Shown here: positions 12,868 through 51,554 of the stretch, piece by piece | Numbering within the stretch: the first letter of the stretch is position 1 | How the letters are laid out: every line of letters starts with the position of its first letter | Assembly (NCBI GenBank): GCA_016214555.1 | Contig: JACROF010000002.1 | Span: 69,416-133,415 of the forward strand | Source: Candidatus Levyibacteriota bacterium | GTDB taxonomy: Bacteria; Patescibacteriota; Microgenomatia; Levybacterales; UBA12049 | Direction: 5' to 3' | Length of the DNA stretch: 64,000 nt | Notes under the pieces: generated by a model | What the model saw: the letters and a program-made list of their open reading frames with translations, nothing else | Databases searched by the model: none | Told to the model about the DNA's origin: nothing | Program-made: the position numbers and the translations under genes

Positions 12868-12891
12868 GAAAAAATTGTATCACGGAGTATA

Positions 12892-13734: not shown

Positions 13735-13738
13735 TGCA

Positions 13739-14512
13739 ATGGACATTGTTCATGCTGTTATTCTGGGAGCAGTAGAGGGAATTACAGAATTTCTTCCTAT
13801 TTCATCAACAGGTCATCTTATTCTAACCTCTCATTTTCTCAAAATCACACAGACTGAATTTGCTAAAAGTTTTGAGATTATTATTCAACTTGGTGCAATC
13901 TTGGCTATCATAACTCTTTACTGGAGATCTCTTTTTGTTCAAAGGTCCAATTGGCCAAAGCTTTTTTTGGCATTTGCACCAACAGCTTTAGTAGGATTCA
14001 CCCTCTATCCATTTATTAAAGATATTCTTCTTTCAAGTCCTAACGTGACACTTGTATCATTATTTGTCGGTGGAATTGTACTTATAATCATCGAAAAAAC
14101 GCACAAAGAGCGCGATTTCCATACTGACAGCATTTCTCACATCACAAATAGACAGGCTGTACTTATTGGGATGTATCAATCAATCTCTGTTATCCCAGGA
14201 GTCTCAAGAGCAGGAGCGACCATCATTGGTGGCATGCTAACTGGTGCGAAGAGAAAAGTTGCTGTTGAGTTCTCGTTTTTATTAGCAGTTCCAACTATTC
14301 TTGCTGCAACACTTTTAGACCTTTCTCATTCATATCAAACATTTTCAGTACAAGACCTTCATTTGTTACTTGTTGGATTTTGTTCATCATTTGTCGTTGC
14401 ATTTTTCACTGTTAAATTTTTTGTAACATACATTACAAAAAACAATTTTATATTGTTTGGAGTTTATAGAATTTTTATTGCCATATTTTATTGGATATTT
14501 CTTCTTCGCTAG
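13739..14512 (+). CDS. uppP: undecaprenyl-diphosphatase
   Basis: MDIVHAVILGAVEGITEFLPISSTGHLIL is the BacA/UppP signature. The start is taken at ATG 13739 rather than the ORF-track 13658, which overlaps the upstream gene. Confidence 0.85.
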   Translation: MDIVHAVILGAVEGITEFLPISSTGHLILTSHFLKITQTEFAKSFEIIIQLGAILAIITLYWRSLFVQRSNWPKLFLAFAPTALVGFTLYPFIKDILLSSPNVTLVSLFVGGIVLIIIEKTHKERDFHTDSISHITNRQAVLIGMYQSISVIPGVSRAGATIIGGMLTGAKRKVAVEFSFLLAVPTILAATLLDLSHSYQTFSVQDLHLLLVGFCSSFVVAFFTVKFFVTYITKNNFILFGVYRIFIAIFYWIFLLR

Positions 14513-14610
14513 TCTTGACTCTAGGCTTGAAAGAAGCTATACTCGATAACGCACTACATCCACTACGCTCCCTCGTTTTTGGTTAACTCTGCATCCTGTA
14601 GTTATATAAT

Positions 14611-16068: not shown

Positions 16069-16075
16069 TATATGT

Positions 16076-19000: not shown

Positions 19001-19423
19001 AAGGCTATTATCGTAATGTTAGTTATCCCTCTATCAATCTCTGGCGTATTTATTGTCTTTGCACTCACAAAAACACCTCTGTCATTCCCAGCACTTATTG
19101 GTATTCTTGCGCTCTTTGGCATTGTAGTAAAAAATGCTATTCTTGTTGTCGACAAAATCAATGCAAATGTAGCAATCGGCATGAAATTTGCCGACAGTAT
19201 CGTTGATGCATCAGAGAGTAGACTTGAGCCAATTGCGCTGACCTCTCTTGCAACAATTTGTGGATTGATCCCTATTACAGTCTCTGATCCACTCTGGAGA
19301 GGACTTGGCGGAGCGATCATTGCAGGACTTCTTTTTTCAGGAACCATAATGCTCTTCTTTATTCCTGTTGTCTACTACAACTGGTTCAATCCAGTAAAAA
19401 AGACAAGGATAAAACGATCATGA
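16076..19423 (+). CDS. efflux RND transporter permease subunit (AcrB/MMPL superfamily)
   Basis: 1115 aa with two 6-TM bundles and large periplasmic loops. Organisation is typical of RND transporters. Confidence 0.85.
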   Translation: MKTETSYLHHLRFDSRLKNSFVAKYLSNPRLVILLLLTIIGIGATSYASLPRRVNPEINIPIIVVSTVLPGANPQDVESLVSQPIEDGIDSVANIKTVSSTSQENVSIVQIEFNSGIDPDKARGDIQSAIDQVELPTDALSPKVIKIDFENQPVWTFTLIGKGDVASLSRFAIKLKNDLENKSSIDNATTNGLEEREISVIIDPSRIATYGITPFQLSSLVKASVGSFPAGTVLTQNSSFALSIDPAVTSVEDVRNLQLNIQGTIVPLSSIATITERSKPNQSPSYFASHTREPERSITFNVYKTSTANIDQATKDAEKIVHENIASYKGQFETLTIVNSGELINEQFNELIRDFSITTILVFIVLFVFLGARQAFVSFFAVPLTFLISFSVMKFTGISLNFLSMFSLLLSLGLLVDDTIVVISAMTSYYRSKKFTPLETGLLVWKDFLTPILTTTLTTVWAFLPLLLSTGIIGEFIKAIPIVVSSTLLASLAVALLVTLPLMIILLKPAIPSRVVVLFRILFVMFLLSIFAFIVPKGIFLPFAFLALFVFLFVTAKARLGLVRKSKIFIEKTKRNHQSLKVAPSFIDNGVFDFGRFSIKYRRALAKILATKENRRRAVFMVITFSLFSYLLVPFGFVKSEFFPKSDQDFVYVSVELPAGTNTDTAEKESLYLLKTLRNTKDVSYVIVDIGQAFSQSGGQASSGSNNILYSLVLPKNRSSSSIDIAQNLRDTLSGYTPGKLTVTEESGGPPAGADVQIKLFGDDIPTIDSYANNVVSYLEKQKGTTDISKSIKPGTSKIVFVPNQTKLLQNNLTQDQVGIWLRSFASGFTLDSVKFGNEAVPGNKKQDITFRMSPKLESVSDISTLSIPTQSGPVAISSLGKLKLESNPTLITREDGKRTISITATVTKGYQASEINKNLESYADNNLNLPDGYSWKTGGANEENQNSVTSILAAMLLSFLLIVVTMVIQFGSFRKAIIVMLVIPLSISGVFIVFALTKTPLSFPALIGILALFGIVVKNAILVVDKINANVAIGMKFADSIVDASESRLEPIALTSLATICGLIPITVSDPLWRGLGGAIIAGLLFSGTIMLFFIPVVYYNWFNPVKKTRIKRS

Positions 19424-19974
19424 ACGAGAGACAAAAAAGAGCCTCTGTTGAAATGCACTTAGTAGGCAGAGAGGATCAGTCTCCAGAAGAGTTTTTGTCT
19501 GAAAGGCAGAGAATGAAGATACACTATTCTCAGCCTGCATTTCCTCAATCTCCTGAGGTGATAAAAAAGAGAGCATCACAAATCATATATGAGAGTCCAC
19601 TCACAGTAACAATCCCTGGCTATAAACCTTCCCCAGTTAGTGACGTGTCTGAAGACGCTATCGTAGAGTATGACAAGACAGGCAGAGCAGTGAAGGTCAC
19701 TGGGTCGACACTTGAATACACGCGCGAATACAGTCCCAATGGATATATCACTCATGAAGTGATTAGGAAAACAGATGCAGAAGGAATTGTCACTGAGGAA
19801 TTCTGTGAATTTAGCTACGGTATGCAGCGAGGGAATTATTGTGTCCAAAGAATATCAGTTACTCCATACAGAGTAACAGGTGAGCAAAAAACACAGATCA
19901 AGTCGACATTCCTCATAGATCTTACGGATCTTTATCCACACGTGCCACTTAAAAAGTCAGCTCCATCTTTTTAA
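19420..19974 (+). CDS. hypothetical protein (184 aa)
   Basis: ATGA start/stop overlap with the RND gene. No motif recognised. Confidence 0.5.
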   Translation: MNERQKRASVEMHLVGREDQSPEEFLSERQRMKIHYSQPAFPQSPEVIKKRASQIIYESPLTVTIPGYKPSPVSDVSEDAIVEYDKTGRAVKVTGSTLEYTREYSPNGYITHEVIRKTDAEGIVTEEFCEFSYGMQRGNYCVQRISVTPYRVTGEQKTQIKSTFLIDLTDLYPHVPLKKSAPSF

Positions 19975-20097
19975 ATCAAGTCTAGAGTCATAGTAATTTC
20001 TAATTATAGTGCTGTCGTGAAAAATCACGATTCCTCAACATAATTTTCACCAAAAGATTGACAGTGTTAGGATATAGTTTGTGTCTGTTTATCATAA

Positions 20098-20126
20098 TTG
20101 ACAGAAAAATCATCCTCCGGTAGTAT
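20098..20126 (+). promoter_or_regulatory. sigma70-like promoter (TTGACA-17-TAGTAT)
   Basis: ttgaca at 20098-20103, a 17 nt spacer, then tagtat at 20121-20126. It lies 290 nt upstream of the first secreted-protein gene. Confidence 0.4.
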
Positions 20127-20287
20127 GTTTGTTATGGGTAATACGCCGGCCGTCAACGGAGGCGAGGTGTTGAAGACATAATTGTCTTAACATATCAGGA
20201 AGTTTCCCTAGAAGTGCGACTCATACAATAATTTATGAATACTACCTGCCTGGTATCGTATACTTTATTATACTGTAAAAATCGCCA

Positions 20288-20327
20288 CCCCTTACATCCA
20301 AGGTTGGAAGGATGTGAGGGGTTTTTT
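20288..20327 (+). terminator. intrinsic terminator-like hairpin + U tract (leader terminator 1)
   Basis: ccccttacatcc ... ggatgtgagggg (11/12 bp) followed by tttttg. Confidence 0.5.
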
Positions 20328-20332
20328 GTGGA

Positions 20333-20383
20333 TCCCACTCTCACTGTGTCTAAATTCAGGTGAACTGTAAGAGTGGGTGTTTT
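20333..20383 (+). terminator. second terminator-like hairpin + U tract
   Basis: cccactct ... agagtggg (8 bp) followed by tgttttt. It lies 37 nt upstream of the RBS of the 20421 gene. Confidence 0.45.
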
Positions 20384-20420
20384 TATTAAAAGTACCCTAC
20401 CTATGAAAGGAGGTGAATGT

Positions 20421-21509
20421 ATGAAAAAATTTTTAACACTTTTTTTTACCCTTACACTTTTTGTTCTAGTCAAACCAACCTTCGCAGATACTGTAAACGT
20501 TAATTTTGAGAACCCACCATATAATCTTGGGGTCATTAATGCCCAAGACGGGTGGAGCAGTCTAGGATCAGCAGGATCAGGATGCGCAGTATATGATCAC
20601 GCTGTAAATAGTGCTCTAGGAACAACAGGATTTGGATCACAATCTCTTCGTATCTCAAATGCTATAACAAGCGGGTGTTTTGGAGATCAAACATTCTCAA
20701 AGTCACTCATAAATGAAGCAGGTGAATCATCAGCTGTAAACAATGGTTTGTCTGGCGGGACAAGACAGACACATTTTGAAGGCTCGTTTGACCTATCCTC
20801 CACAGTACCTGGGGCAGAACAACCTGGACTGTTTATGTCTGTTTCACCAGATAGAGGAGATGGAGCCCGTATGAGTTACCTTAAGCTCGAAGATCAAGCT
20901 GACGGAGTTCATGTTTTTTTCGATGACTATGTAGACGCAGCTCCTCTTGGAGGACCTGTTGGCGACAGTAATGGATGCAGTGCCGAGGATGATTTTGTTG
21001 AAAGTGATGTCGCTACACTCAGTCGCGCACCACATTCAATCAAATTTAGTATGGACTTCGTTGATGGCCCAAGAAACGACGTTGTAAAAATCTATATTGA
21101 TGGTACTTTAGTCCATACTGGAACAAGCTGGGAGGATTACTTTAGATATTGTGAATCAAACCCAACTAGACCCGTTGATAGTATTTTGTTTAGAACAGGA
21201 GGAGGAGGCTTGCCAAGTGCCCCTGCAACAGCTGGAAATGGATTCTTAGTTGACAACCTTTCACTTCGCTCTGGTCCATCAACAGTGAAAGTAATTCTTG
21301 ACAAATATATTGATGGGGTGATGGCTACATCTGTCACTGCAAATAGTTCCGCATTCCCAATGAACGCAACATGGAGCGCAGATAATATCGGCGCAGGAAG
21401 TGGATCATACAACTTGAGTACAGTAGGATTTAATAGCCCAAATCCCTATGAGGCTGTTACATCCGATATGACCTTTGGTGCTGATTACACTACAAATGAA
21501 GTCACCTGA
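20421..21509 (+). CDS. secreted protein, N-terminal part of an RTX-repeat protein interrupted by in-frame TGA
   Basis: GAAAGGAGGTGAAT RBS, then signal peptide MKKFLTLFFTLTLFVLVKPTFA. The stop TGA at 21507-21509 is followed in the same frame by 34 sense codons and then the RTX-repeat ORF. Confidence 0.6.
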   Translation: MKKFLTLFFTLTLFVLVKPTFADTVNVNFENPPYNLGVINAQDGWSSLGSAGSGCAVYDHAVNSALGTTGFGSQSLRISNAITSGCFGDQTFSKSLINEAGESSAVNNGLSGGTRQTHFEGSFDLSSTVPGAEQPGLFMSVSPDRGDGARMSYLKLEDQADGVHVFFDDYVDAAPLGGPVGDSNGCSAEDDFVESDVATLSRAPHSIKFSMDFVDGPRNDVVKIYIDGTLVHTGTSWEDYFRYCESNPTRPVDSILFRTGGGGLPSAPATAGNGFLVDNLSLRSGPSTVKVILDKYIDGVMATSVTANSSAFPMNATWSADNIGAGSGSYNLSTVGFNSPNPYEAVTSDMTFGADYTTNEVT

Positions 21510-21611
21510 GGTCCAGTAGTTGGAGCAACATGCTCAACTGGTCAACCATTTGCACTTGTTGGTTATACGACAGGAGACACGCTGTCTGCTGCTGAGGGAG
21601 CAACACCAACG

Positions 21612-22157
21612 GTGGCTGTTCCAAACTTCACTGACCTTGAGTCAAACAAGTATGTAATCGTCTGGAATCAGACATGCCCACCACCTGACCCATATGCAGT
21701 ACCAGCAGAGTGCGTAGCAACAGGCTTTACGTATGGCGCACCTATTGTTGGCACAGGAGGCAATAACTCTATCAATGGAACTGGCGGAAATGATCTCATA
21801 TTTGGACTTGGTGGCAACGATAAAATTGATGGAAGAGGTGGTAACGACTGTATCGTTGGAGGAGATGGAAATGACAAGCTATCTGGAGGCACAGGTCTAG
21901 ATGTGTTGCTTGGAGGCATTGGAAATGACGCACTTAGTGGAGACAGCGGCAATGATGTCCTCTATGGCAATGAAGACAATGACAGTCTCAAAGGCGGGTC
22001 AGACAATGACAGGCTTTACGGTGGCACTGGAAATGACGCTCTAGATGGAGGAAGCGATGACGACATCCTCAATGGAGAAGCAAATAGTGATGCTGCTAAA
22101 GGAGGATCTGGAATTGACGCATGTACTGCTGAATCAGTTAAGCAGTGCGAGGTCTAA
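21612..22157 (+). CDS. RTX calcium-binding nonapeptide-repeat domain (C-terminal part of the interrupted gene; same frame as 20421..21509)
   Basis: Tandem GGxGxDxL-type repeats (GTGGNDLIFGLGGNDKIDGRGGNDCIVGGDGNDKL...). The C-terminus CTAESVKQCEV is homologous to the C-terminus of the 24126..25073 protein. The track start is GTG. The frame is open back to 21510. Confidence 0.6.
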   Translation: MAVPNFTDLESNKYVIVWNQTCPPPDPYAVPAECVATGFTYGAPIVGTGGNNSINGTGGNDLIFGLGGNDKIDGRGGNDCIVGGDGNDKLSGGTGLDVLLGGIGNDALSGDSGNDVLYGNEDNDSLKGGSDNDRLYGGTGNDALDGGSDDDILNGEANSDAAKGGSGIDACTAESVKQCEV

Positions 22158-22167
22158 TGGTAATTTG

Positions 22168-22197
22168 TAGTAGTCAATCTTACCCTTGACTACTACC
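22168..22197 (+). terminator. perfect 11-bp hairpin downstream of RTX gene (no U tract)
   Basis: gtagtagtcaa-tcttaccc-ttgactactac. Confidence 0.3.
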
Positions 22198-22242
22198 TAA
22201 TACTTACTTAGAAAACAAATAAAGAAAGGAGGTGAATCACAC

Positions 22243-22827
22243 ATGATCAACCGAAAAATTGCATTAAGTAGTATGTCTATCTTCGCATCTCTTGCGCTGA
22301 TGGGCGGTGCTACTTTCGCATTCTTCAGCGACTCAGCAACAAGTACTGGAAATTCATTTGCAGCAGGAAGTTTTGATCTTAAGATTGGAACCTCAGCTCC
22401 AGCAGCATCTGATTCAATAGGAGCAGTATTTGCAAGCGCAAACATGATCCCAGGTGCAACTCCCGAAACAGCAACAATATTTTTACGAAACACTGGAACA
22501 GTGGCAGGCAACAAGGCTTACTTAAAAATAGAGAACGTTGGGGGAATTGACAACAACGCCAATCAGCCCACTCCAATGACTCGACAAGTTGATATTACTG
22601 TCTCATTAGACGGCACGCCCGTTCTCATTCCAGATACAAATGGGAATGCAAGGCAAGACCTTGAAGACCTTCAGCTATCAGGTAATGGTCTTCAAATTGG
22701 TACTATAACTGACACCGGAGTAGACCATACTTTAGTTGTTACAGCAGGATTAAATTCTGGCGCTGGCAACGAGTATCAAGGAGACTCAGTCACAGCAGAC
22801 TTGAGAGCAACTCTTACTCAAGACTAA
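22243..22827 (+). CDS. TasA/camelysin-family (peptidase M73-like) secreted protein with SipW-cognate signal
   Basis: N-terminus GGATFAFFSDSATSTGNSFAAGSFDL matches the TasA motif AAFND..ATFASGTLDL. This is followed by beta-rich IPGATPE / FLRNTGTV segments. The GAAAGGAGGTGAAT RBS precedes it. Confidence 0.65.
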   Translation: MINRKIALSSMSIFASLALMGGATFAFFSDSATSTGNSFAAGSFDLKIGTSAPAASDSIGAVFASANMIPGATPETATIFLRNTGTVAGNKAYLKIENVGGIDNNANQPTPMTRQVDITVSLDGTPVLIPDTNGNARQDLEDLQLSGNGLQIGTITDTGVDHTLVVTAGLNSGAGNEYQGDSVTADLRATLTQD

Positions 22828-22889
22828 TTCAGGCAGGTGGTGGGGGAGCGTATACACCCCCACTACCTCTGAGGAAAGGATAAGTACGT

Positions 22890-23495
22890 ATGAAAAATAA
22901 ATTGAAAAAAATTAGCAATCACAAGGTTGCAAAACACACCAAGACTGTATTGAAGTGGAAATTTAGTGTGATTTCATTTATATTTCTGCCTCTAGCTATT
23001 TTCACCCTTCTTACAGCCAAAACGACAATAATTCCAACAATCCAATCATTTGTCGTACTAACAGGTAGCATGAAACCCACCCTACCAATTGGCGCTGTTG
23101 TTTACACCCAAAAAGGAAGCGCCATACAAAAAGGTGATGTCATCACTTTCTCAAATAACAAAGGGCAAATTATCACACACCGTGTTGTAGATATTAAAAA
23201 AGCAACGAGCGGACTATCCTACCAAACAAAAGGAGACGCCAACAACACCACAGACCAATCTCTTGTCCCTTCAACCAGTATCAAAGGGAAAGTTCTTTTT
23301 TCACTGCCATACCTTGGTTATCTTATTAATGCTTTAAGAAGTCCTGTTGGGTTTCTGATGTTTGTTATCTTGCCAATTTTGATTTTTATTGCGCTTGAGC
23401 TATGGAATATCAAAGGAGAGATTGAAAAATCAATTGAGAGAAAGCTGAGGCAAGAATTAAGTATCAAAAAATATGAAAAAATTGATATTTCTTAA
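22890..23495 (+). CDS. sipW: signal peptidase I, SipW-type (S26B)
   Basis: N-terminal TM, the VVLTGSMKPTL catalytic-Ser box, GDVITF and ITHRVVDI boxes, and a C-terminal TM. This is the archaeal/SipW-like architecture. Confidence 0.7.
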   Translation: MKNKLKKISNHKVAKHTKTVLKWKFSVISFIFLPLAIFTLLTAKTTIIPTIQSFVVLTGSMKPTLPIGAVVYTQKGSAIQKGDVITFSNNKGQIITHRVVDIKKATSGLSYQTKGDANNTTDQSLVPSTSIKGKVLFSLPYLGYLINALRSPVGFLMFVILPILIFIALELWNIKGEIEKSIERKLRQELSIKKYEKIDIS

Positions 23496-24129
23496 TCTTA
23501 TTACGATGACTGTTTTGTTTGGATTATCATATTCGGTAACACGTGCATTATTTGCTGATAGTGCTACAAGCACCAGCAATTCTTTTACAGCAGCAGCCGA
23601 ATTTCCATCACCTACTCCTACACCAAGTTCATCAGTAGGATCAGTGGTCATCAACGAGCTCATGTGGTCGGGCAGCACAAATACAGATGATGAATGGCTT
23701 GAGCTTCGCAACATGACAAGCTCACCAATTGATCTTACTAACTGGAAATTGGAAGGAAACACTACTCTCACAATCGCATCAGGGACTATTCCAGCAAATG
23801 GTTATTTCCTAGTATCACACTTTGCTGAGACTGATGAAAATTCAATTCTCGGCATCACGCCAGATATCGTTTCTCCATCCGTTCAACTTAATAACACAAA
23901 TCTACAATTAACTTTACGAGATGCTTCTAGCAATATAGTTGACCAAGCAGATGATGCAATTAACCCTCCCTTTGCTGGGAGCAACACTACTCCTAAAAAG
24001 TCAATGGAAAGAAACCTTGTGCCTGGAGATGGAACTGTGTCATCAAACTGGCATACAGCATCTACACAACTTAATCTTGACAGCGGAGCACTCGAGTCTG
24101 CTACTCCAAAAGGAGCAAATAGCTTATGA
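23473..24129 (+). CDS. lamin-tail-domain (LTD) protein with SipW-cognate signal peptide
   Basis: N-terminus TRALFADSATSTSNSFTA, then a Pro/Thr linker, then VVINELMWSGSTNTDDEWLELRNMTSSPIDLTNWKL (the LTD signature). Confidence 0.6.
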   Translation: MKKLIFLNLITMTVLFGLSYSVTRALFADSATSTSNSFTAAAEFPSPTPTPSSSVGSVVINELMWSGSTNTDDEWLELRNMTSSPIDLTNWKLEGNTTLTIASGTIPANGYFLVSHFAETDENSILGITPDIVSPSVQLNNTNLQLTLRDASSNIVDQADDAINPPFAGSNTTPKKSMERNLVPGDGTVSSNWHTASTQLNLDSGALESATPKGANSL

Positions 24130-25073
24130 GAATTTTAAAGAATAAATTGATTCACGTTGGCATACTATTAATTGCAGTGACCCTTATTGCTTTTCATACT
24201 CATGCTATTCAGAAAATTTTCTGGCCGGAAAGAGTCGAAGCGGTTGGGGATCTGACCATTAACTGGGGAATTGGCACTGGCAATGTAGGGCCTATCTTTA
24301 CTCTCAACGATATGGCCCCAGGCCAATCTGAGCAAAAAACGGTAAGCGTTAGCAATGGAAGCCTCAATCCGCTCACCATTAGCGTAAGAGGAGTAAAAGC
24401 TTTAGAGACTGCAAGCCTAGCTAATGTAATGAACATTGCCATTTCCCACAATGGTGTGGATCTATATGGAGGTTCTAGTCCTACTGGATTTAAAACATTG
24501 GCAGACTTTTTTTCAGATAGCTCAAACATCCTGGGAATCTCACTTAAAACACAGAGCCCAAACACAACAGAAAATTATCAATTTACCATAACTTTTAACG
24601 AATCTGCAGGCAACACATACCAAAACGCATCACTATCTTTTGATATTCATATGGGAATAGCTATTGACATCCCAATTGCTTGCCAATCAATTAATTTTGG
24701 CACTCATGAGCCAATTATTGGATCTAAGAAAAGCGAGAAACTAACTGGTACAGCTCAAAATGACCTGATACTTGGAATGGGTGGCAGTGACAAAATTGAT
24801 GGCAAAGGAGGCCATGACTGCATTCTGGGTGGAGACGGTAGTGACTCAATTACAGGAGACACCGGCGATGATGTCCTAGTAGGTGAGGGCGGAAGCGATA
24901 CTATTCGAGCAGGAAGTGGAAACGACACCATTACTGGAGGCAACGGAGCAGATAGCATGTACGGAGACGCAGATAATGACACAATTGTTGGAGATGGTGG
25001 ATCAGACAAAGCGGTTGGTGGAACAGGGACTGATACTTGCAGCGCAGAATCAAAATCACAGTGTGAATTATAA
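24126..25073 (+). CDS. TasA-like domain fused to C-terminal RTX calcium-binding repeats
   Basis: N-terminal anchor, then FTLNDMAPGQSEQKTVSVSNGSLNPLTISV (TasA-like beta-sandwich). The C-terminal 100 aa are GGxGxD repeats ending CSAESKSQCEL. Confidence 0.6.
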   Translation: MRILKNKLIHVGILLIAVTLIAFHTHAIQKIFWPERVEAVGDLTINWGIGTGNVGPIFTLNDMAPGQSEQKTVSVSNGSLNPLTISVRGVKALETASLANVMNIAISHNGVDLYGGSSPTGFKTLADFFSDSSNILGISLKTQSPNTTENYQFTITFNESAGNTYQNASLSFDIHMGIAIDIPIACQSINFGTHEPIIGSKKSEKLTGTAQNDLILGMGGSDKIDGKGGHDCILGGDGSDSITGDTGDDVLVGEGGSDTIRAGSGNDTITGGNGADSMYGDADNDTIVGDGGSDKAVGGTGTDTCSAESKSQCEL

Positions 25074-25143
25074 AAAGATCTTTTCACTTCATGGGTAGAG
25101 ATTTCCTAAACATGAAGTATCAAATATCTTTTTTTGAAAGGAG

Positions 25144-25761
25144 GTGAATACAAAAATGACAAATCTAAAAACAAAAATTACAACCGGTCTCGTGACTGCT
25201 GGTATTATTGCCAATTTTGTTGCTCCAGCAGCTTTTGCGGATACAGATGTTACTGTTAAAGAAAACGGCGATAGTTCAACTAACAAAGTTAAGGTTAAGA
25301 ACAAACACGTCGTCAAGGTTAAGCAAAAAAACACAACAAATATAACAAATTCTGTTGGCTTGACTCAAAGCACTGGCGGTAACAACGCCAAGAAAAATAC
25401 CGGTGGCGATGTCACCCTTACAAGCGGGGACGCTACAGCTAATGTAACCATCGACAACACAACAGATGGCAATACAGCTACAGTTGATGGGTGTGGCTGC
25501 GCTGGTGGAGACACAACAGTAAATGTTGAAGGCAATGGAGCCGACTCAACAAATAAAGTTAAAGTCTCCAACGTTAATGTCACAAAGGCTACTCAAAAGA
25601 ACACAACAACTGTGATCAACGGAGTAAGTATTGGACAGACAACGGGTGGCAATTCAGCAAATAGCAACACAGGTGGATCAGTTGATGTTACATCTGGTGA
25701 TGCTGATGCTACTGTAGGCATTGCCAACTCAGTTGGTGAAAACTCTTTAACTATTAACTAA
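25144..25761 (+). CDS. secreted Asn/Thr/Gly-rich repeat protein (2 modules), novel repeat family
   Basis: GAAAGGAGGTGAAT RBS and a signal peptide. Two ~85 aa modules have the form V.V..NG..S.N.V.V.N...V...Q.N.T.I.N.V...Q.TGGN.A..NTGG.V..TSGDA.A.V.I.N, separated by VDGCGCAGG. Confidence 0.6.
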   Translation: MNTKMTNLKTKITTGLVTAGIIANFVAPAAFADTDVTVKENGDSSTNKVKVKNKHVVKVKQKNTTNITNSVGLTQSTGGNNAKKNTGGDVTLTSGDATANVTIDNTTDGNTATVDGCGCAGGDTTVNVEGNGADSTNKVKVSNVNVTKATQKNTTTVINGVSIGQTTGGNSANSNTGGSVDVTSGDADATVGIANSVGENSLTIN

Positions 25762-25791
25762 TAGTTTGAGTAAATCTTCTAGAAGGACAAG

Positions 25792-25828
25792 GCCCTGCCC
25801 AGGCTGACGAGCCCAGGCAGGGTTTTTG
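25792..25828 (+). terminator. intrinsic terminator
   Basis: ccctgcc ... ggcaggg (7 bp perfect) followed by ttttt. Confidence 0.6.
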
Positions 25829-25877
25829 TTGAGAAAACTCTTACACAAAATATACAAATATGGTATAAACTATAGGT

Positions 25878-26309
25878 ATGCGATTTATCCTCCTTTTCCT
25901 CTCAATTCTTTCCTTTATTGGACTTAAAAAAACTTTTGCCGAGACAAATGTTGTAGTAAAGTCAAATGGTGGTTCAAGTCACGTAAATGTTGTTTCTAAA
26001 ACGAGCTCAGGCGACAGCACAACCTCAGAGAGTCATGTAACAATTGAGAACAATGGGGAAGTTAAGACCTTTGATGTTACAGGGGATGAGTCAATTGATT
26101 GGACCTCAGATGATGGCAAATCTACAGTCAAAATTAACGCTCAGACAATTACGCCATCACCCAAAGCCTCCATGTCACCAACAGTTACAAAAAATGAGGA
26201 ATCAAAATCCACAGTGTCTTTGAGTCAAGACCAACCCAAAAAGTCAGTTTCTCTTTATGAGCTTGTTAAGAAAGTACTTCAGGACATCTTTTCCTCTTTT
26301 GGTAGATAA
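25878..26309 (+). CDS. short secreted paralog of the repeat family (1 partial module)
   Basis: Signal peptide, then VVVKSNGGSSHVNVVSK..., the same opening as the module. Confidence 0.45.
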   Translation: MRFILLFLSILSFIGLKKTFAETNVVVKSNGGSSHVNVVSKTSSGDSTTSESHVTIENNGEVKTFDVTGDESIDWTSDDGKSTVKINAQTITPSPKASMSPTVTKNEESKSTVSLSQDQPKKSVSLYELVKKVLQDIFSSFGR

Positions 26310-26450
26310 ACCATATTTGTCTTACTTGACAAACAGCGCAATATTTTTCAAACTATATATGTGGCTAGTAAATCTGTCAAAAAAACATCGCAAAAAAGCC
26401 GTCTTGAAAACCCTGTTCACAACTTGATAGGATATGGGGCACTTCTTGTC

Positions 26451-27080
26451 TTATCTTTTGTCGTTCTTGCTATTGTCTACAGTCTCCAGTGGTACATCAT
26501 TCCCTGATTCCTTCGCAAAAATCAAAAGCCTTTTCCAATCAGTCCCAATAGGTGTGCAGGTTTGTAGTATAAGAACATCATCTTTTCTCTGAGTAACTTC
26601 ATTAACTTGCCTTGGGCTGACCTCTTTTTTATCAACAACAGCATAGTGGTACTCTTTACTTTGCTTCCACACAACAATACTATCTCCTTTTTCAAGCTCT
26701 CCCAATCGAAGAAAGATGCTATTGTATCTTGTAAGTTCCCAAGGTGAGCTAGATGAGTGTGCAAAAAGATATATTGGTCCACTTTCTCCTGGCAGGGCAA
26801 ATCCCTTTGCGTGTGCAATTCCTTTTTTTAAAGCAGGTATGTATTCATTTTTATTCCAGGGATCAACTTGTGCAATGATATTGCCTGAAGCACGTATTTT
26901 TGGAATCCAAATTGAAAATTCTCTTTCATATACCGAGGGCATTGATGTAGGGAAAAAGTATGCGTGGAATACGGGAAAAAATATATATAAAAATCCTAAA
27001 AAAGACAACAATACTAAGCCATTCCCAATTCCTCTTACAAGTCTATTTTTCATCTGAGTATTGTAGCTAATTCGACTCAC
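26451..27080 (-). CDS. sortase-family transpeptidase
   Basis: N-terminal TM, His box LFAHSS, the TLxTC-like LILQTCTP motif with the catalytic Cys, and an Arg in TDWKRLLIF. Confidence 0.65.
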   Translation of the reverse strand: MSRISYNTQMKNRLVRGIGNGLVLLSFLGFLYIFFPVFHAYFFPTSMPSVYEREFSIWIPKIRASGNIIAQVDPWNKNEYIPALKKGIAHAKGFALPGESGPIYLFAHSSSSPWELTRYNSIFLRLGELEKGDSIVVWKQSKEYHYAVVDKKEVSPRQVNEVTQRKDDVLILQTCTPIGTDWKRLLIFAKESGNDVPLETVDNSKNDKR

Positions 27081-27085
27081 AAGGT

Positions 27086-27116
27086 CAAAAAAAATCCCCT
27101 TGCGGGGATGTTTTTA
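27086..27116 (-). terminator. bidirectional intrinsic terminator (A-run, atcccc-ttgc-ggggat, T-run)
   Basis: Hairpin flanked by A7 and T5. It lies immediately downstream of the 27114..28250 minus-strand gene. Confidence 0.6.
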
Positions 27117-28250
27117 GATTGCAAATGCACCAGGAGACCTGCCGGATCTCAGTCTTAACAGCACACCGAAAAATAACATCAAGAGATTTCCAAGAATGGC
27201 AAGTAATATCCAAGGATTTCCTGTTGCTGGCAACACCTCGCCTGTTGTTGTACCGAGTACAGAATTAGATGTCCCACCACCATTTCCACCTGATGATGGA
27301 GGGTTACCACCATTTCCTGAAGGTGGAGGTGGGGGAGGAGGATTGCATCCATCTCCTTCACATGGTGGTGGAGGAGGTGGTTCTTTGCATCCACAATCCA
27401 CAGTAACTTCACTCTGATTTGCTTGGTTGTCGACATCGATTGAGACATGAATATCACCAGTTTTTATCGCGACATCTCCATTGTTACCATTTGCGTTATT
27501 ATTCCCAGTGATCAAATTCCAAATGCTGTGATTAAAGATGTCTGAAACATTTGAAATAGCAATCGTAGTGCTGGTGTCTTCTCTTAGAGTTATGGTGTTA
27601 ACACTGCCTTCACCATTTCCTGAAATTTTGATTTGAAATCCACCGTTTCCACCTGTTAAAGCGTTAACAATTGCGAGATTTGTTTTATTTTTGATGCTTT
27701 CTTCTACAGTAATATTTCCTGTTGTGATTGCTACATTTCCGTTGTTATTGTTAGCGTTATTGTTACCTGTAATAGCTGTTCCAGATATGTTATTTGTGAT
27801 AGTTGCTTGCTGATTAATACTTATTGCGCTTGTAGTAATACTTGTATAACCAACAGTGTTTATGGAGTTAGCGCCATTTCCAGAAATGATAGCCTGACTG
27901 TCATGATTGTCGCAACATGCACCAGCTGTTATGTCACTATTATTCATACTGTTAGCGATGGTTGTGTCTGTACTGATATTTCCCGTGGTAACAGCGGTAT
28001 CTCCTCCAGTATTGTTACTTGCTGAATTGTCTCCTGTGTTAGCCAAGACATTTACATCATTGTTAACCTCAGCATTATTTTCCTGAGAAACATGTACATC
28101 ATGGGACTGACTTATAGATACATCACTCGAAGATCCATCGCCATTACCAGTAATTGTCAGCGTCTCTGCATGAGCAGTACTCACTGCAAAAGGCAGGAGA
28201 GTCGCACTAAAAACGGTCAAAATAATTTTATCTTTTTTCATCACTAACAT
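27114..28250 (-). CDS. secreted repeat-family protein with PPPPPP linker and C-terminal LPATG sorting signal
   Basis: Signal peptide, repeat modules (NTGGDTAVTTGN..., AGACCDNHD) and two Pro-rich runs. The C-terminus has VLPATG, a hydrophobic stretch and RLRSGR, the classic sortase substrate signature. Confidence 0.65.
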   Translation of the reverse strand: MLVMKKDKIILTVFSATLLPFAVSTAHAETLTITGNGDGSSSDVSISQSHDVHVSQENNAEVNNDVNVLANTGDNSASNNTGGDTAVTTGNISTDTTIANSMNNSDITAGACCDNHDSQAIISGNGANSINTVGYTSITTSAISINQQATITNNISGTAITGNNNANNNNGNVAITTGNITVEESIKNKTNLAIVNALTGGNGGFQIKISGNGEGSVNTITLREDTSTTIAISNVSDIFNHSIWNLITGNNNANGNNGDVAIKTGDIHVSIDVDNQANQSEVTVDCGCKEPPPPPPCEGDGCNPPPPPPPSGNGGNPPSSGGNGGGTSNSVLGTTTGEVLPATGNPWILLAILGNLLMLFFGVLLRLRSGRSPGAFAI

Positions 28251-28290
28251 AATGTATGTTTGGGGGCAGAGGACTATTTGGTTGGCAGAC

Positions 28291-30534
28291 CTAGACTAAT
28301 TTGCGGGCAAGTAATTTTTTCCTTTTCACAATAATTATTCCAACAATTGGTAGCACAAGTAGTAGCCATGCAAGATTGATGCTCATAGCTCCTTTTGCTG
28401 TATCTGCTCCAAGAACTGATGTATCAAGACTCGCACCTTTGACCAAAGAGCTATTTTCATCCTCAGTACTACCAGATCCAACAGATCCTGCACTTGCATG
28501 TGATCCTCCTGATGTTACCTCAGTTGTACCATTGCTATTACTTTTAGTAGATGAGCCTGTTGACTTTGTATTTGATGACTGGTTGCTGGATTTATTCGAG
28601 CCGTTATCATCGTCATGACTGTCTGTTGTGTTACTTGCAGCACTTTCAGTATGAGTATCAAGAGCTGTCTTCTCCTCTTTCTTCTGACCAGGAGAGACAA
28701 AATCTCCAAGCCAAGTTCCAAATACATTAACAACGGTGACAAAAACTTTTCCATTTCCTTTAATATTGTTGTTAACAAAATTGATCATGTTAGCTACGAT
28801 TGTAGCGTCTCCTGTTTTAATATTTGAGTTGCCACCAGTATTGTCACTTGTTGCATTGTTGCCAGTATTTGCAGACAAATTAAGAGTATTATTGATGTCT
28901 GCATTGTTGGTTTGATTTGTAGTATTAGTATTTGTTGTCGATACAGCTGTATCGTTGGTACTATTGGTTCCATTTTTGTTATTTTTTGCTGTGACGTATC
29001 CATTTTCATCGACTTCGAAGTCTGATCCCTCTGATCCTGCAAAGAACGCGTCATCTGGAGCACCCATGATTTTCCCAATCCATCCCTTTGTAACATCATT
29101 AACTAACACAATCCACCAATTTCCACCGACAATATTGTTGTTGGCTATATTAAGGAGATTGACATCAATCGTTGTGTCACCAGTGCTGATTGAAGAATCT
29201 CCGCCTGTGTTTCGACTGGCTGTGTTGTCTCCAGTATTAGCATCAAAGACAAGGTCATTTGTGATATCTGCTGTGTTTGATTGAAACGTATTATCAGTAT
29301 CAACGATGTCTATGTCTGAAGTGTTGGTACTATTACTTCCGTTGCCTGTATTGGTAGCTGCGACATTTCCTCCGCAGCACGCATTCAACTGATCCTCAGG
29401 AAATATGATATCTCCAATAAAATAAAAAAAAATGTTGACAATGCCATAGATGACATTCCCAGCTATATTATTGTTAGCAAAGGTTACAATATTTGCTGCA
29501 ACATTCGCATCGCCGGTTGTGATGCTTGAGTCCCCACCGGTATTTCGACTTGCAGTATTATTTCCAGTATCAGCAGACAGTACGAGATCATTTCCAATTT
29601 GAGCATCGTTTTCTTGTGTTGTTGTAGTTGTATTTGTGGTATCAACACTACCTTGATTGGTTGAATTTGATCCATTTGCCGTATTTGCAACATTTGTTGT
29701 GCCTCCGCATCCTACAATACAGTTGGCAGCAAAATCCAGAACAACATCTCCAATCTGATCATCAAGAACATTAAACTCAGAGACCATTACTCCTTCTGCA
29801 TTCGTATTCACCATAGTAATTACCGTTCCTGTTGAATTTGCATCACCTGTCTTAATGGATGCATCTCCTACATTGTCTGATGCTGTGTTGTCGCCAGTAA
29901 CCGTTGATGAGTTGAGGTTGGTATTTACTGATGCGCTATTTGTTTGAGTCGTATTATTATTGTTGTCAACAACAGCTGAACCACTGTTGGTCGATCCTGT
30001 ACCATTTGCGGTATTTGCAACTACAGCACCACTACCACCTGAACCTGCTCCGACTCCAGCGAGGTTGTTGTTGCCACTATTCACAACGCTTGTCGTACTT
30101 GCAGCATCGCCTGTATCTATTTCAATATCACCAACACCATCTGGTGTCGAATCCGAAGTTTGAGAAAGATTTGTTGGAGTTGGGGTAGGGGAAACTCTAT
30201 TTCTTTCAGGTGGAGTAATGCCCTGACTGATCAAATAAGCATCAACTTGATCTTGAATTTCCTTCTGAAGCTGCTCTCTGTATAGTCTTGCTGCCTTGTC
30301 TGTTTCATCCTCAACATAAGGAGTTGGAGTGGGGGTAGGAGTTGCCTGCTCTTGAGTTGGAGTAGGCTCAGTTGTTTGAGATGCCTCCTGAGTCTGCTCG
30401 CCTGGCGTCGTTTGTTCTGTTGTTGTACTACCTTGATCTACTACTTCGTCAGCATACACAGCCGGTGCGACCTGTGTCGCAACTTGTATAGTCAAGAGTG
30501 TGATTACTAATAATTTTTTAATTATATTTGTCAT
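28291..30534 (-). CDS. large secreted repeat-family protein (747 aa, 4 modules) with C-terminal TM anchor
   Basis: Signal peptide, PT-rich linker, four modules (NTASRNTGGDSSITTGDANVAANIV...), CC/CGG spacers (NACCGG, CIVGCGG), and a C-terminal hydrophobic segment plus a KRKK tail. Confidence 0.65.
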   Translation of the reverse strand: MTNIIKKLLVITLLTIQVATQVAPAVYADEVVDQGSTTTEQTTPGEQTQEASQTTEPTPTQEQATPTPTPTPYVEDETDKAARLYREQLQKEIQDQVDAYLISQGITPPERNRVSPTPTPTNLSQTSDSTPDGVGDIEIDTGDAASTTSVVNSGNNNLAGVGAGSGGSGAVVANTANGTGSTNSGSAVVDNNNNTTQTNSASVNTNLNSSTVTGDNTASDNVGDASIKTGDANSTGTVITMVNTNAEGVMVSEFNVLDDQIGDVVLDFAANCIVGCGGTTNVANTANGSNSTNQGSVDTTNTTTTTQENDAQIGNDLVLSADTGNNTASRNTGGDSSITTGDANVAANIVTFANNNIAGNVIYGIVNIFFYFIGDIIFPEDQLNACCGGNVAATNTGNGSNSTNTSDIDIVDTDNTFQSNTADITNDLVFDANTGDNTASRNTGGDSSISTGDTTIDVNLLNIANNNIVGGNWWIVLVNDVTKGWIGKIMGAPDDAFFAGSEGSDFEVDENGYVTAKNNKNGTNSTNDTAVSTTNTNTTNQTNNADINNTLNLSANTGNNATSDNTGGNSNIKTGDATIVANMINFVNNNIKGNGKVFVTVVNVFGTWLGDFVSPGQKKEEKTALDTHTESAASNTTDSHDDDNGSNKSSNQSSNTKSTGSSTKSNSNGTTEVTSGGSHASAGSVGSGSTEDENSSLVKGASLDTSVLGADTAKGAMSINLAWLLLVLPIVGIIIVKRKKLLARKLV

Positions 30535-30621
30535 ATTTGTTAATTGTTAATTTTCTATTCTCCTTGTATTCGTGGGGCTTACGGAAGTGCTCGTAACACC
30601 CCACGAATCAAGAGAGTTTGA

Positions 30622-31854
30622 TTAGTTGTGGCTTAGTAGCCAATCAACCAAATCTCCAAGATCAAAAGAAAGATCTAAGTGGAGATCGCTAAGATCAACA
30701 TCAGCATCTGGACCATAAAGGTTCATATTGCCGGTGTTTGAAGCATCTACGTTTACATCAGATTCACCAGTTGTGATGGAAGGATCAGATCCTGCCCAAC
30801 CTGTGTTATCGTCTGCATCGTTGTCGCCTGTATCACTATCTGCGTCGACATCATTGTCAACATCAGCATCGTTGTCCTGATCTACATCGAGATCTGCATC
30901 ACTTTCGTAATCGATTTCGTTGTCTGAATCAGTACCGTTACCTGCGATTTTTGCTTCTAGATCTGATAGACAGCCACAAGCTTCTACATCTGCTGCGTTG
31001 AAGTTAGCCATATTGTCTAACGTTACATCAACATTTGAGTCGCCTGTTTCGATAGAAACATCTCCGCCGGTGTTATCCTCTGCGTCGTTGTCTCCAGTAT
31101 CAGAGTCGACGTCGACATCATTGTCGAAGTCTGCATCGTTGTCTTGATCGACATCGACATCACTGTCGAAGTCTAGATCAATATCATTATCTGAATCTGA
31201 TCCATTACCAAGAATCTTTGCACTGAGTGAGCCGCCATCACCAGAGCCACCACCAACAGTTGCACTGTTAGAGTTAGCCTGATTTTTGATCATTACGTTA
31301 ACTTTACTGTCGCCTGTTTTTACCTCGACATCTCCGCCGGTGTTGTCATCAGCATCGTTGTCTCCAGTTTCAGAATCGACATCGACATCGTTATCGAAGT
31401 CTGCATCGTTGTCTTGATCGACATCAACGTCAGTATCGTAATCGAGATCTACATCATTATCTGAATCAGTACCATTACCTGATACCTCAACTGTCGTGTT
31501 ACCATTTTGGCAACATGGGTCTACGTTAGCGTAATTAGCATTTGCTTTGTTTTTGATTGTTACATCAACATTTGAATCACCGGTTTCGACTTTTACATCT
31601 CCACCTGTGTTATCACTTGCAGAGTTGCCACCAGTACTTGAATCGACATCAATATCATTATCGAAGTCTGCATCGTTGTTCTGATTTACGTCAACATCTG
31701 TGTCATGATCGACATTGATACTACTATCACTATTAGAACCGTTTCCGGTAATAGTAAATGATTGAGTAGAAGCGAATGTCATTCCTGCTAGTGCGTGGAG
31801 TAAGACTGATCCGGTTGCAATAGCTGTTGTAATTCGTGTTTTATAGTTTGTCAT
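30622..31854 (-). CDS. secreted Asp-rich repeat-family protein (410 aa, 4 modules)
   Basis: Signal peptide and modules of the form ITGNGSNSDSS..DVDVDQDNDADFDNDVDVDSxTGDNDADDNTGGDVxVxTGDSxVNV, separated by PCCQNG / ACGCLS. Confidence 0.65.
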   Translation of the reverse strand: MTNYKTRITTAIATGSVLLHALAGMTFASTQSFTITGNGSNSDSSINVDHDTDVDVNQNNDADFDNDIDVDSSTGGNSASDNTGGDVKVETGDSNVDVTIKNKANANYANVDPCCQNGNTTVEVSGNGTDSDNDVDLDYDTDVDVDQDNDADFDNDVDVDSETGDNDADDNTGGDVEVKTGDSKVNVMIKNQANSNSATVGGGSGDGGSLSAKILGNGSDSDNDIDLDFDSDVDVDQDNDADFDNDVDVDSDTGDNDAEDNTGGDVSIETGDSNVDVTLDNMANFNAADVEACGCLSDLEAKIAGNGTDSDNEIDYESDADLDVDQDNDADVDNDVDADSDTGDNDADDNTGWAGSDPSITTGESDVNVDASNTGNMNLYGPDADVDLSDLHLDLSFDLGDLVDWLLSHN

Positions 31855-32165
31855 AATATATTCACCCCCTTTCTTGACGATAATTTCCAGACCACCTGGT
31901 CAAGAGCACTTCATCCCGCTTTATCTTGTCTACTGCCTGAGCTTTGACAAAAAAAACGGAAACTCCACAGCCTTAAAGACAATAAGGTTGCAAGGTTTCC
32001 GTTTTAAAAAGCATCTTTGTTACCATAATTTTGTAGTCGTAAGGTTTTGCAACAAAAAAAGCACCACACATAATTGTGAGGTGCCTCCGTGTACGGTCAG
32101 CAAGCCTTTGCGACGTTCGAATATTTTTCTGTTAACCAAACTATAGATGAGTACCTAAAGTCTTG

Positions 32166-32360
32166 TCAAGAGCCAATTTTCACAGTCCTTCCAAGAGAAG
32201 AATCTTGGTTAGTTTTTTTGATATTTCTTTCGGTGATTTGTACAACTTTATAATTTTGAACATAGATTTCAACACTACCCCAACCTCTCACATTTTTCAA
32301 TGCTTCTGTAACTTCATCAATGAGTTCTTTACTTACTTCTTTTGTTGAATAATCATTCAT
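32166..32360 (-). CDS. DUF2292 (YezD-like) small protein
   Basis: 64 aa. GWGSVEIYVQNYKVVQITERNIKKT resembles the YezD family. Confidence 0.5.
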   Translation of the reverse strand: MNDYSTKEVSKELIDEVTEALKNVRGWGSVEIYVQNYKVVQITERNIKKTNQDSSLGRTVKIGS

Positions 32361-32385: not shown

Positions 32386-32985
32386 TTACTGCAGTTTTAA
32401 CTTGAATTCTTCCTTACTACCATTCAACTCTCCGATAAACAAGGTAAGATTTTTATCGTCTTCATTAATAGGGAATGCGAGCCGTGATTGTTTTGTTGAA
32501 TCAGGCTGAATCTCAACAGGGTCACTATGAATATCAGCTGCAAATTTGTCTTTTCCCCCATTAACAGTGAGTCTAATATAATCTCTTGCAGAAACCTGAA
32601 TGCTTGCTTTATAGGTATTAATAATTTTAAGTTTTATCACAAGAAATGTTCTTCCATCAACTGCTCGCGCTTTTTTTCCTTTGACAATAAGTTCATCTCG
32701 AATTTCTGCTGATTCGATTAAGTAACGAATTTTGCTCACTTCTTTGCCACTAGAATCTTTAAGGGGGAATCGAACTTCCTTGTTAATTTCCTGAGTTGCT
32801 TTTGCCTTTTGAAGAGTGATCTTCCCACCACTTGATAATGAATCTGAAAGTCCCGATGATTTTCTAAGAGCGAAAAAACCAAGAAGTAGTAATATAACTC
32901 CGACAATTACTGCAGGAATAAGCAAAGAGTTTTTAGAGAATTTTCGTGATGTAAATGATTTTCTGACACCGTCCATATTAATCAA
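32386..32985 (-). CDS. membrane-anchored DUF4352-like protein
   Basis: N-terminal TM plus a beta-rich domain (RTFLVIKLKIINTYKASIQVSARDYIRLTV). Confidence 0.45.
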   Translation of the reverse strand: MINMDGVRKSFTSRKFSKNSLLIPAVIVGVILLLLGFFALRKSSGLSDSLSSGGKITLQKAKATQEINKEVRFPLKDSSGKEVSKIRYLIESAEIRDELIVKGKKARAVDGRTFLVIKLKIINTYKASIQVSARDYIRLTVNGGKDKFAADIHSDPVEIQPDSTKQSRLAFPINEDDKNLTLFIGELNGSKEEFKLKLQ

Positions 32986-51480: not shown

Positions 51481-51554
51481 GAGATACATACAAGAAACAG
51501 ATCGTCGTAGTGCCAGGCTGCATTTGTAGCCTGGCATCATGTATGGAGGGAACC

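Follow-up and report, generated by a model that had tools for sequence, protein, structure and literature searches.

The subject of this analysis is a 64 kb stretch of contig JACROF010000002.1 (positions 69,416 to 133,415) from a Candidatus Levyibacteriota bacterium, hereafter the window, to which all coordinates refer unless stated otherwise. An earlier note, made from the sequence alone, had singled out within it a run of some 11.5 kb of genes for secreted proteins and their processing enzymes. The listing of open reading frames (ORFs) and searches of the window proteins against Pfam and NCBIfam, with curated cutoffs, confirmed such a contiguous block at 20421–31854. The block holds 11 genes and not the twelve counted originally, since ORFs 20421–21509 and 21612–22157 are a single gene (g1/2). 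Genes g1/2 to g8 are read from the plus strand and g9 to g12 from the minus strand, and all nine non-enzyme products begin with Sec-type signal peptides. The genes fall into a core, made of a sortase and four paralogous secreted repeat proteins (g7, g10, g11 and g12), and an adjoining TasA-type cassette (g3 to g6), accompanied by g1/2 and g8:

20421–22157, plus strand: g1/2, 578 amino acids (aa); signal peptide, N-terminal region of ~400 aa without assignment, RTX repeats and a Cys-x-AE-x4-CE-V C-terminus
22243–22827, plus strand: g3, predicted TasA/camelysin-like fibre subunit with a SipW-type signal peptide (PF12389, TIGR04088)
22890–23495, plus strand: g4, SipW-type (archaeal/endoplasmic reticulum-type) signal peptidase I with a C-terminal transmembrane segment (TIGR02228)
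23473–24129, plus strand: g5; SipW-type signal peptide, TasA-donor-strand-like motif, Pro/Thr linker and lamin tail domain (LTD; PF00932)
24126–25073, plus strand: g6; signal peptide, TasA-like jelly-roll domain with a divergent N-terminal segment, RTX repeats and a Cys-capped C-terminus
25156–25761, plus strand: g7, secreted protein of 201 aa with two repeats and no anchor
25878–26309, plus strand: g8, small secreted Ser/Thr-rich protein of 143 aa with a weak N-terminal half-repeat (independent E-value 0.13)
26451–27080, minus strand: g9, sortase (200 aa from the start chosen by the gene caller, ATG 27053)
27114–28250, minus strand: g10, sortase substrate; signal peptide, three repeats, Pro-rich then Gly/Ser-rich stalk, LPATG
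28291–30534, minus strand: g11, 747 aa, four repeats and one partial repeat, C-terminal membrane anchor
30622–31854, minus strand: g12, 410 aa, 23% Asp, isoelectric point (pI) 4.05, four repeats, no anchor

The most novel component of the locus, on which the earlier note touched only in passing, is the family defined by the ~85-aa Asn/Gly/Thr-rich repeat. A hidden Markov model (HMM) built from the three g10 repeats and run on the window proteins recovered the repeats of g7, g10, g11 and g12 together with the doubtful half-unit of g8, and nothing elsewhere in the window. Thirteen units align cleanly around the pattern GNG..S.N … Q.N.A … TG.N.A..N.GG … TGD, with N7, G8, S11, T43, G44, N46, N51 and G60 invariant. 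No unit matched a Pfam family. In NCBIfam, g10 and g7 found no match, g11 only weak or far-below-cutoff ones and g12 only far-below-cutoff matches to Asp/Ser-rich MSCRAMM adhesins; a profile of the g10 family, compared with PDB sequences, returned no relative of solved structure. When the repeat profile was run against 1.84 billion cluster representatives, it retrieved 3,322 proteins at E ≤ 1e-3 (2,304 at E ≤ 1e-10), which fall into discrete architectures: ~400–440 aa with 4–5 repeats, ~700–800 aa with 5, and up to 1,183 aa with 9–10. All members that carry an organism name belong to the Candidate Phyla Radiation (CPR) and are annotated as hypothetical; the groups named are Levy-, Davies-, Roizman-, Woese- and Gottesmanbacteria, the Microgenomates group and the Parcubacteria group.

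The paralogues differ in how they end. Members of the g10 family (~375 aa) share Cys pairs (CC, C.C) and a stalk that is rich first in Pro and then in Gly; g10 itself is 100% identical to a protein from one Candidatus Levybacteria metagenome-assembled genome, in keeping with an origin of the window in these ultra-small, uncultured CPR bacteria of the Microgenomates. The g11 product ends in INLAWLLLVLP…KRKK, and its orthologues share the INLAW…LP membrane anchor with its basic tail. Orthologues of g12, the most conserved of the repeat paralogues (at least 856 homologues), have in common an acidic/aromatic C-terminal tail. The g7 gene is found in every related locus, convergent to the sortase gene. 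Its start is ATG 25156 and not GTG 25144; a 201-aa product was also called on L001, a contig from Logan accession SRR12113407 that differs from the window at 6 of 18,264 positions. The small g8 gene is lineage-restricted and is absent from loci of the Daviesbacteria type. A common MTN(L/Y/I)K… start was seen on the signal peptides of g7, g11 and g12 (positions 25156, 30534 and 31854). Of the six positions at which L001 departs from the window, five lie close together at 29404–29427, within g11 codons 370–372, where the window reads through an A-rich run (FYF) and L001 has GDL. The latter resembles the N.FG..GD pattern found after the last g11 repeat and in g11 orthologues, and the window is probably mis-assembled or mis-polished at this place.

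The g9 product scored 67.6 bits against the sortase family PF04203 (cutoff 26.6) and 51.8 bits against TIGR01076 (cutoff 39.35), and the motifs holding the catalytic residues, FAHSS (His), LILQTCTP (Cys) and KRLL (Arg), are conserved. All models for sortase classes A–F remained under cutoff, the best being class C with 52.7 bits (cutoff 160). The adjacency of a sortase and an LPATG protein, pointed out in the earlier note, was borne out: g10, the next gene, ends in LPATG-NPWILLAILGNLLMLFFGVLL-RLRSGRSPG, that is, in an LPATG motif, a hydrophobic segment and a basic tail. Across 111 g10 homologues P341, T343 and G344 are invariant and L340 is at least 90% conserved, the LPxTG motif being again followed by a hydrophobic segment and a basic tail. 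No other LPXTG protein is encoded within the 64 kb. Gottesmanbacteria have a shorter g10-like protein with an LSQTAG end beside a more divergent sortase with a TLFTC motif, and the pairing of enzyme and substrate is therefore supported by co-variation. A sortase gene next to several secreted paralogues, with class C as its best class-specific score, also brings to mind a pilus of the Gram-positive type, in which a pilus-specific sortase would join the subunits covalently. This explanation is largely refuted by the fact that the sorting signal is confined to g10, three of the four paralogues (g7, g11 and g12) having none. Moreover, the class C score lies far under its cutoff, there is a single sortase in place of a pilin-specific and housekeeping pair, and pilin-type Ig (CnaB) domains were not detected in the Pfam and NCBIfam searches. 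We regard such a pilus as extremely improbable.

To follow the locus in other genomes, contigs carrying homologues of g10 (8 loci in one scan), g3 or g12 were collected and their ORFs scored by phmmer against the window proteins. On its far side from the cassette, the core is bordered by a conserved pair of genes:

32166–32360, minus strand: small DUF2292 protein
32386–32985, minus strand: membrane-anchored DUF4352-like protein

The order DUF4352-like gene, DUF2292 gene, g12, g11, g10, sortase, followed by convergent g7, is kept as far as the sequence reaches in L002, L004, L006–L012, L015–L018 and two further contigs, Daviesbacteria (GCA_000991895) and Gottesmanbacteria being among the carriers. 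The DUF4352-like gene is syntenic in every locus with sufficient flank; a DUF2292 match was found in most loci with flank, L002–L005 having none. The four repeat paralogues and the sortase always travel together. Thus, gene order is conserved in those of the compared Microgenomates loci that have enough flank, and the homologues are not scattered. What lies beyond g7 differs among lineages:

Window, L002/3, L007 and L011: TasA–SipW–accessory–RTX cassette
L006, L008, L009, L010, L014 and L018: only a g1/2-type RTX protein
L004/5, L012 and L017: neither the cassette nor the RTX protein

Hence the presence of the 578-aa type of RTX protein (g1/2) is variable as well. Sampling from the core side covered 12 lineages, of which 4 have the cassette. 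Four further g3 homologues (36–44% identity) all lie in the arrangement TasA–SipW–LTD–RTX–g7 / sortase–g10–g11–g12, and in each of the 8 lineages where the cassette was seen it adjoins g7 and the core, always on the same side.

Three observations on individual loci are recorded here. L002 and L003 (Daviesbacteria, ~12000–17600) are near-identical contigs whose genes are not equally intact: in L003 the lipase-like gene (PGAP1/LCAT matches) is a single one of 842 aa, SipW has 183 aa and the RTX C-terminus is complete, whereas the lipase-like, SipW and RTX genes of L002, the NCBI assembly, are fragmented or truncated, which suggests frameshift errors in GCA_000991895.1. Beyond its TasA gene, L002 carries at 18297–21152 a second sortase and three unannotated genes (203, 329 and 540 aa) that may constitute another sortase and substrate set. 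In L004 (3281–3934 and 12030–21072) the core has a duplicated g10-type gene and is flanked by a DsbA-like thioredoxin gene and by a run of large genes for glycosyltransferases, pyruvyl-transferases and deacetylases. Such neighbours hint at disulfide formation, since Cys pairs are conserved in the repeat proteins, and at a connection with cell-wall polysaccharide.

In Bacillus subtilis, TasA polymerises through its residues 28–38, located just past the SipW cleavage site, which insert into the next subunit; the N-terminus of TapA resembles this donor strand and nucleates the fibres (PMC9674648, PMC10151520). In the window, g3 matched PF12389 at E 4e-10 (40.2 bits, cutoff 22.5) and the SipW-cognate signal model TIGR04088 at 28.1 bits (cutoff 19), and PF12389 is carried by 47 of 47 g3 homologues. 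The predicted mature N-terminus is FFSDSATSTGNSFAAGSFDL. A family profile of 40 sequences matched the B. subtilis TasA structures 5of1 (monomer) and 8aur (fibre) at E 3e-6, aligning residues 33–194 with 5–203 and including the C-terminal YQG.S…Q motif. As this match spans the whole mature domain, the TasA assignment made in the earlier note holds at the profile level, solved structures included, and does not depend on the signal peptide alone. The presence of a SipW-type signal peptidase among these genes was likewise upheld: g4, starting 63 nt downstream of g3, scored 100.8 bits against TIGR02228 (cutoff 51.85), and orthologues retain its catalytic motifs GSMxP (Ser), THR (His) and GDAN (Asp). 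Since its 103.6 bits against NF046067, the equivalog model for Bacillus SipW, are below the cutoff of 190, g4 is of the SipW type but is not the Bacillus equivalog.

The start of g5 overlaps the end of g4 by 23 nt, and that of g6 overlaps the end of g5 by 4 nt; these overlaps fit low-abundance accessory proteins made together with the peptidase. The lamin tail domain of g5 was identified by PF00932 (E 2e-15, 57.5 bits, cutoff 34.3). The N-terminus of g5 resembles g3 (phmmer E ~1e-6) and carries LFADSATSTSNSFTAA, a motif like the TasA donor strand. It gave no TIGR04088 match at E ≤ 0.1 and was recognised by alignment only. Orthologues of g5 keep A[LF]F.D.A.S..N.F and then the Pro/Thr linker; the C-terminal domain is an LTD in most and something else in Daviesbacteria. 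The retention of the N-terminal motif alongside a variable C-terminal domain is the pattern of TapA. For g6, the N-terminal domain was related to the g3 family by hhalign (probability 97.2%, E 3.9e-11, 167 columns), and TIGR04088 found no match, its N-terminal segment being shorter and divergent. Of the three SipW-cognate motifs originally proposed, two therefore stood, that of g3 by profile and that of g5 by alignment and orthologues, and the one at 24126 (g6) did not. The idea that g6 has no donor strand and hence terminates the fibre was softened in turn: its orthologues retain an N-terminal segment of ~11 residues, motif-like in Daviesbacteria.

Both g1/2 (E 1e-30) and g6 (E 1e-20) contain RTX nonapeptide repeats according to PF00353, and the RTX region of g1/2 matched CyaA and serralysin structures in the PDB (E down to 7e-27). 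The C-terminus D.C.AE....CE[ILVM] is common to the two proteins and is kept in the orthologues of both families, those of g1/2 measuring 297–549 aa and coming from the six loci with only a g1/2-type protein listed above. The earlier description of two RTX proteins with a shared C-terminus was in this way corroborated by profile and orthologue alignments. Judging from sequence, their RTX domains are calcium-binding beta-roll modules, and the proteins are not exports of the RTX-toxin type, because each starts with a Sec signal peptide and genes for type I secretion are missing. There is no adjacent type I ABC exporter at the locus. Directly upstream lie instead an AcrB-type resistance-nodulation-division (RND) transporter (16076–19423) and a YknX/CzcB-like membrane-fusion protein (14611–16068), unusual equipment for a monoderm CPR cell. 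This pair was considered as part of the system and discarded: only some Levybacteria-like loci have it alongside, and it is missing from the loci that were reached by way of TasA homologues.

The two ORFs that make up g1/2 are divided by nothing but an in-frame TGA at 21507–21509. In L001 the codon reads GGA (Gly), and the frame runs through as one protein of 578 aa. An alternative genetic code was rejected, as TGA closes 9 of 57 long ORFs and the near-identical contig has GGA. Since TGA is a normal stop here and L001 reads GGA, the break is either a nonsense variant, that is, a strain-level knockout, or an assembly error; in this assembly g1/2 is inactivated.

The strong upstream element that the earlier note had described as shared by several genes, GAAAGGAGGTGAAT, is indeed present before several of them. 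It occurs within the locus in three exact copies and one with a single mismatch, and the window holds five sites within two mismatches where 0.72 would be expected by chance:

20405–20418, plus strand: extended Shine–Dalgarno site of g1/2
22224–22237, plus strand: extended Shine–Dalgarno site of g3
25136–25149, plus strand: extended Shine–Dalgarno site of g7
31860–31873, minus strand: extended Shine–Dalgarno site of g12 (GAAAGGGGGTGAAT, one mismatch)

Each copy sits 2–6 nt before an ATG and contains AGGAGGTGA. The 14-nt element was therefore dismissed as a separate regulatory motif, its position and sequence fitting a Shine–Dalgarno site; by these features it is an extended ribosome-binding site, presumably complementary to the tail of the 16S rRNA, of which the window contains no gene. 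Only unanchored structural genes, namely g1/2, g3, g7 and g12, are preceded by it; in front of the genes for enzymes and for anchored or accessory proteins, Shine–Dalgarno sites are weak or missing, or the starts overlap.

Four further sites may bear on transcription:

20098–20126, plus strand: promoter-like TTGACA-17-TAGTAT upstream of the first gene (consensus match only)
32140–32169, minus strand: promoter-like TTGACA-18-TATAGT, 11/12, upstream of g12 (consensus match only)
25793–25822, plus strand: 13-bp GC-rich hairpin followed by TTTTTG after g7, a likely terminator
27094–27109, minus strand: short hairpin and T-run (T7) separating the stop of g10 from the start of the sortase gene, resembling a terminator or attenuator

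Promoter-like and hairpin sites were no more numerous in the region than in the shuffle expectation, and these transcription signals are weak evidence.

Taken together, the data make it probable, in our estimate with somewhat better than even chances, that the locus is a Microgenomates cell-envelope or surface-structure cluster of two linked modules, the core and an accessory TasA cassette. Sequence comparison establishes the domain identities, the catalytic residues, the sorting signal, the paralogy and the conserved, linked gene order; that the products assemble, the shape they would take, a part for calcium and any part in attachment are inferred. In the core, the four secreted paralogues of the ~85-aa all-beta repeat would be the structural material. 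The sortase g9 would link g10 covalently to peptidoglycan, with the Pro/Gly stalk of g10 spanning the wall, and g11 would be held in the membrane by its C-terminal transmembrane anchor. The very acidic g12 and g7, both unanchored and endowed with the strongest ribosome-binding sites, would be made in larger amounts. We propose that the anchored paralogues serve as a base on which the free ones assemble, by like-with-like contacts between repeats, into a coat or fibre. Such logic would be chaplin-like (sortase-anchored long forms and free short forms) or curli-like (CsgB and CsgA), without homology to either. The second module, present in this genome, would be a donor-strand fibre cassette of the TasA type: g3 would be the major subunit, g4 would cleave its special signal peptide, g5, with its TasA-like N-terminal strand on a lamin tail domain, would act as a TapA-like initiator or tip, and g6, combining a TasA-like domain with a calcium-binding RTX beta-roll, may be a minor subunit or adaptor.

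Several findings weigh against this interpretation. Of the 12 lineages sampled from the core side, 8 have the core but no TasA/SipW, so that TasA/SipW must be regarded as an accessory cassette; in addition, core and cassette lie in separate, convergent transcription units with predicted terminator-like hairpins. For these two reasons the functional coupling of the modules is conjectural. The role of g6 in the fibre is likewise assigned tentatively, since its donor strand may be usable. As for the repeat proteins, AlphaFold2 gave an all-beta model of the g10 family from 111 sequences at moderate confidence only (pLDDT 72, pTM 0.51; pLDDT 59 with 22 sequences). A Foldseek search found nothing significant (best E 4e-3, TM-scores <0.2), the likeness to curli and FapC being weak and local, and no clear peak appeared for a short internal period such as a solenoid coil of 17–22 aa. 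Because the Foldseek matches are non-significant and no short period is evident, we describe the modelled fold as an apparently undescribed all-beta repeat with a weak resemblance to beta-solenoid amyloids.

The same distribution and the same convergent units with terminator-like hairpins could mean that the block just brings together genes whose products do not work jointly: a housekeeping sortase and its one substrate, a TasA operon in its own right and RTX adhesins unrelated to either. The core does occur without any RTX protein in 3 lineages, besides those without TasA/SipW. Against this stand the position of the cassette next to g7 in 8 of 8 lineages, at g3 identities down to 36%, the constant association of the four repeat paralogues with the sortase, and the same unusual Cys-capped C-terminus on both RTX proteins. 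We hold independent neighbours to be rather improbable. The surface-fibre, attachment or matrix system proposed in the earlier note stands as a dedicated, co-localised surface-protein system; it is not one indivisible system, TasA/SipW being accessory. A role in host-cell attachment is speculation.

The shape of the assembly could also differ from a fibre. The repeat proteins might form a two-dimensional lattice of the surface-layer (S-layer) type, in which calcium would order the RTX proteins together with acidic g12, the lattice being tethered to the wall by g10 and to the membrane by g11. The Asp content and pI of g12, the two RTX calcium-binding proteins of the locus, the strong ribosome-binding sites of g12 and g7 and the conservation of the core in every lineage sampled, as expected of an envelope component, are compatible with this view. 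Cryo-electron microscopy of groundwater ultra-small bacteria by Luef et al. in 2015 reportedly showed S-layers of unknown composition. However, Pfam and NCBIfam gave no match to S-layer or SLH families, the g10 family profile has no PDB relative, and RTX proteins are absent from the core-bearing loci L004, L012 and L017. Furthermore, S-layers are usually built from one large, non-covalently bound subunit and not from four paralogues with a sortase. We consider a lattice possible but unlikely. Returning to the two-module cluster, a bolder version of it can be offered just as tentatively: the repeat proteins might be the outer coat of Microgenomates that has long escaped identification, an S-layer-like or amyloid-like sheath nucleated on the sortase-anchored and membrane-anchored paralogues, to which some lineages would add a polar TasA fibre. 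The ends of this fibre would be set by the LTD protein, which has only the donor strand, and by the TasA–RTX fusion, and the envelope as a whole would be used in contacts with hosts or surfaces.

The cassette recalls the tapA–sipW–tasA operon of B. subtilis in several ways. In both, a TasA-family subunit with a SipW-type signal peptide is encoded beside a dedicated SipW peptidase, the accessory gene overlaps sipW, and the accessory protein (g5 or TapA) carries an unrelated domain behind an N-terminus that mimics the subunit donor strand. In contrast to that operon, the genes here run tasA–sipW–accessory, the accessory protein has a lamin tail domain in place of the TapA fold, g6 adds a fusion of a TasA domain with RTX repeats, and the host is a CPR bacterium in which the cassette is always docked to the sortase and repeat-protein cluster.

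For the core, a parallel is offered by the chaplins of Streptomyces, which comprise sortase-anchored long forms and secreted short forms. As in that system, paralogues share an assembly domain and some bear a sortase signal while others are free, which suggests an anchored base for a surface polymer. Unlike chaplins, the proteins studied here have no chaplin-domain match in Pfam and no sequence relationship with them; the repeat is ~85 aa long and hydrophilic (Asn/Gly/Thr/Asp-rich) where the chaplin domain is hydrophobic and ~40 aa long, and one paralogue (g11) is membrane-anchored. The locus departs from the curli and Fap systems too: there is no Curlin_rpt match, the locus encodes neither CsgG/E/F nor FapF for secretion, the monoderm host uses Sec export and a sortase, and the repeat is four times longer. 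The RTX proteins share true nonapeptide beta-roll repeats (PF00353) with Gram-negative RTX proteins such as CyaA and the serralysins, from which they differ by their Sec signal peptides, the lack of an adjacent type I ABC exporter and the two-cysteine cap.

Outside the locus, G+C reaches 0.43–0.48 at 50000–60000, compared with about 0.38 elsewhere in the window, and several tRNA genes (54612–62767) lie in or just beyond that segment.

There are precedents for sortase anchoring, for TasA/SipW fibres, for RTX beta-rolls and for LTD domains. A survey of the literature on sortases, S-layers, amyloids and TasA in CPR bacteria, Levybacteria and Microgenomates yielded one relevant report, in which Wang et al. 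(2022) noted PF12389 proteins, the TasA homologues, in Patescibacteria (PMC9245690). The claim that the composition of the locus is undescribed must be narrowed to that extent. It stands for the rest, the survey having found no description of the repeat-domain family, of its sortase-linked organisation across Microgenomates or of the fixed docking of the TasA cassette with its LTD and TasA–RTX accessories.

CPR bacteria make up a large share of bacterial diversity and apparently live attached to other cells; to our knowledge, their envelope proteins are almost entirely unknown. The cluster supplies named candidates: a conserved sortase with its cognate substrate, a new repeat-domain family of ~3,300 cluster representatives annotated as hypothetical and a TasA cassette with unusual accessories. 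Even if the repeat proteins formed neither a coat nor fibres, the locus would still illustrate clearly how sortase anchoring and TasA fibres extend beyond Firmicutes and Actinobacteria. Should they prove to be a coat or attachment fibres, they would provide targets for antibodies, for labelling in cryo-electron tomography and for host-range studies in Microgenomates, and a coat of this kind would represent a previously undescribed envelope architecture for CPR bacteria.

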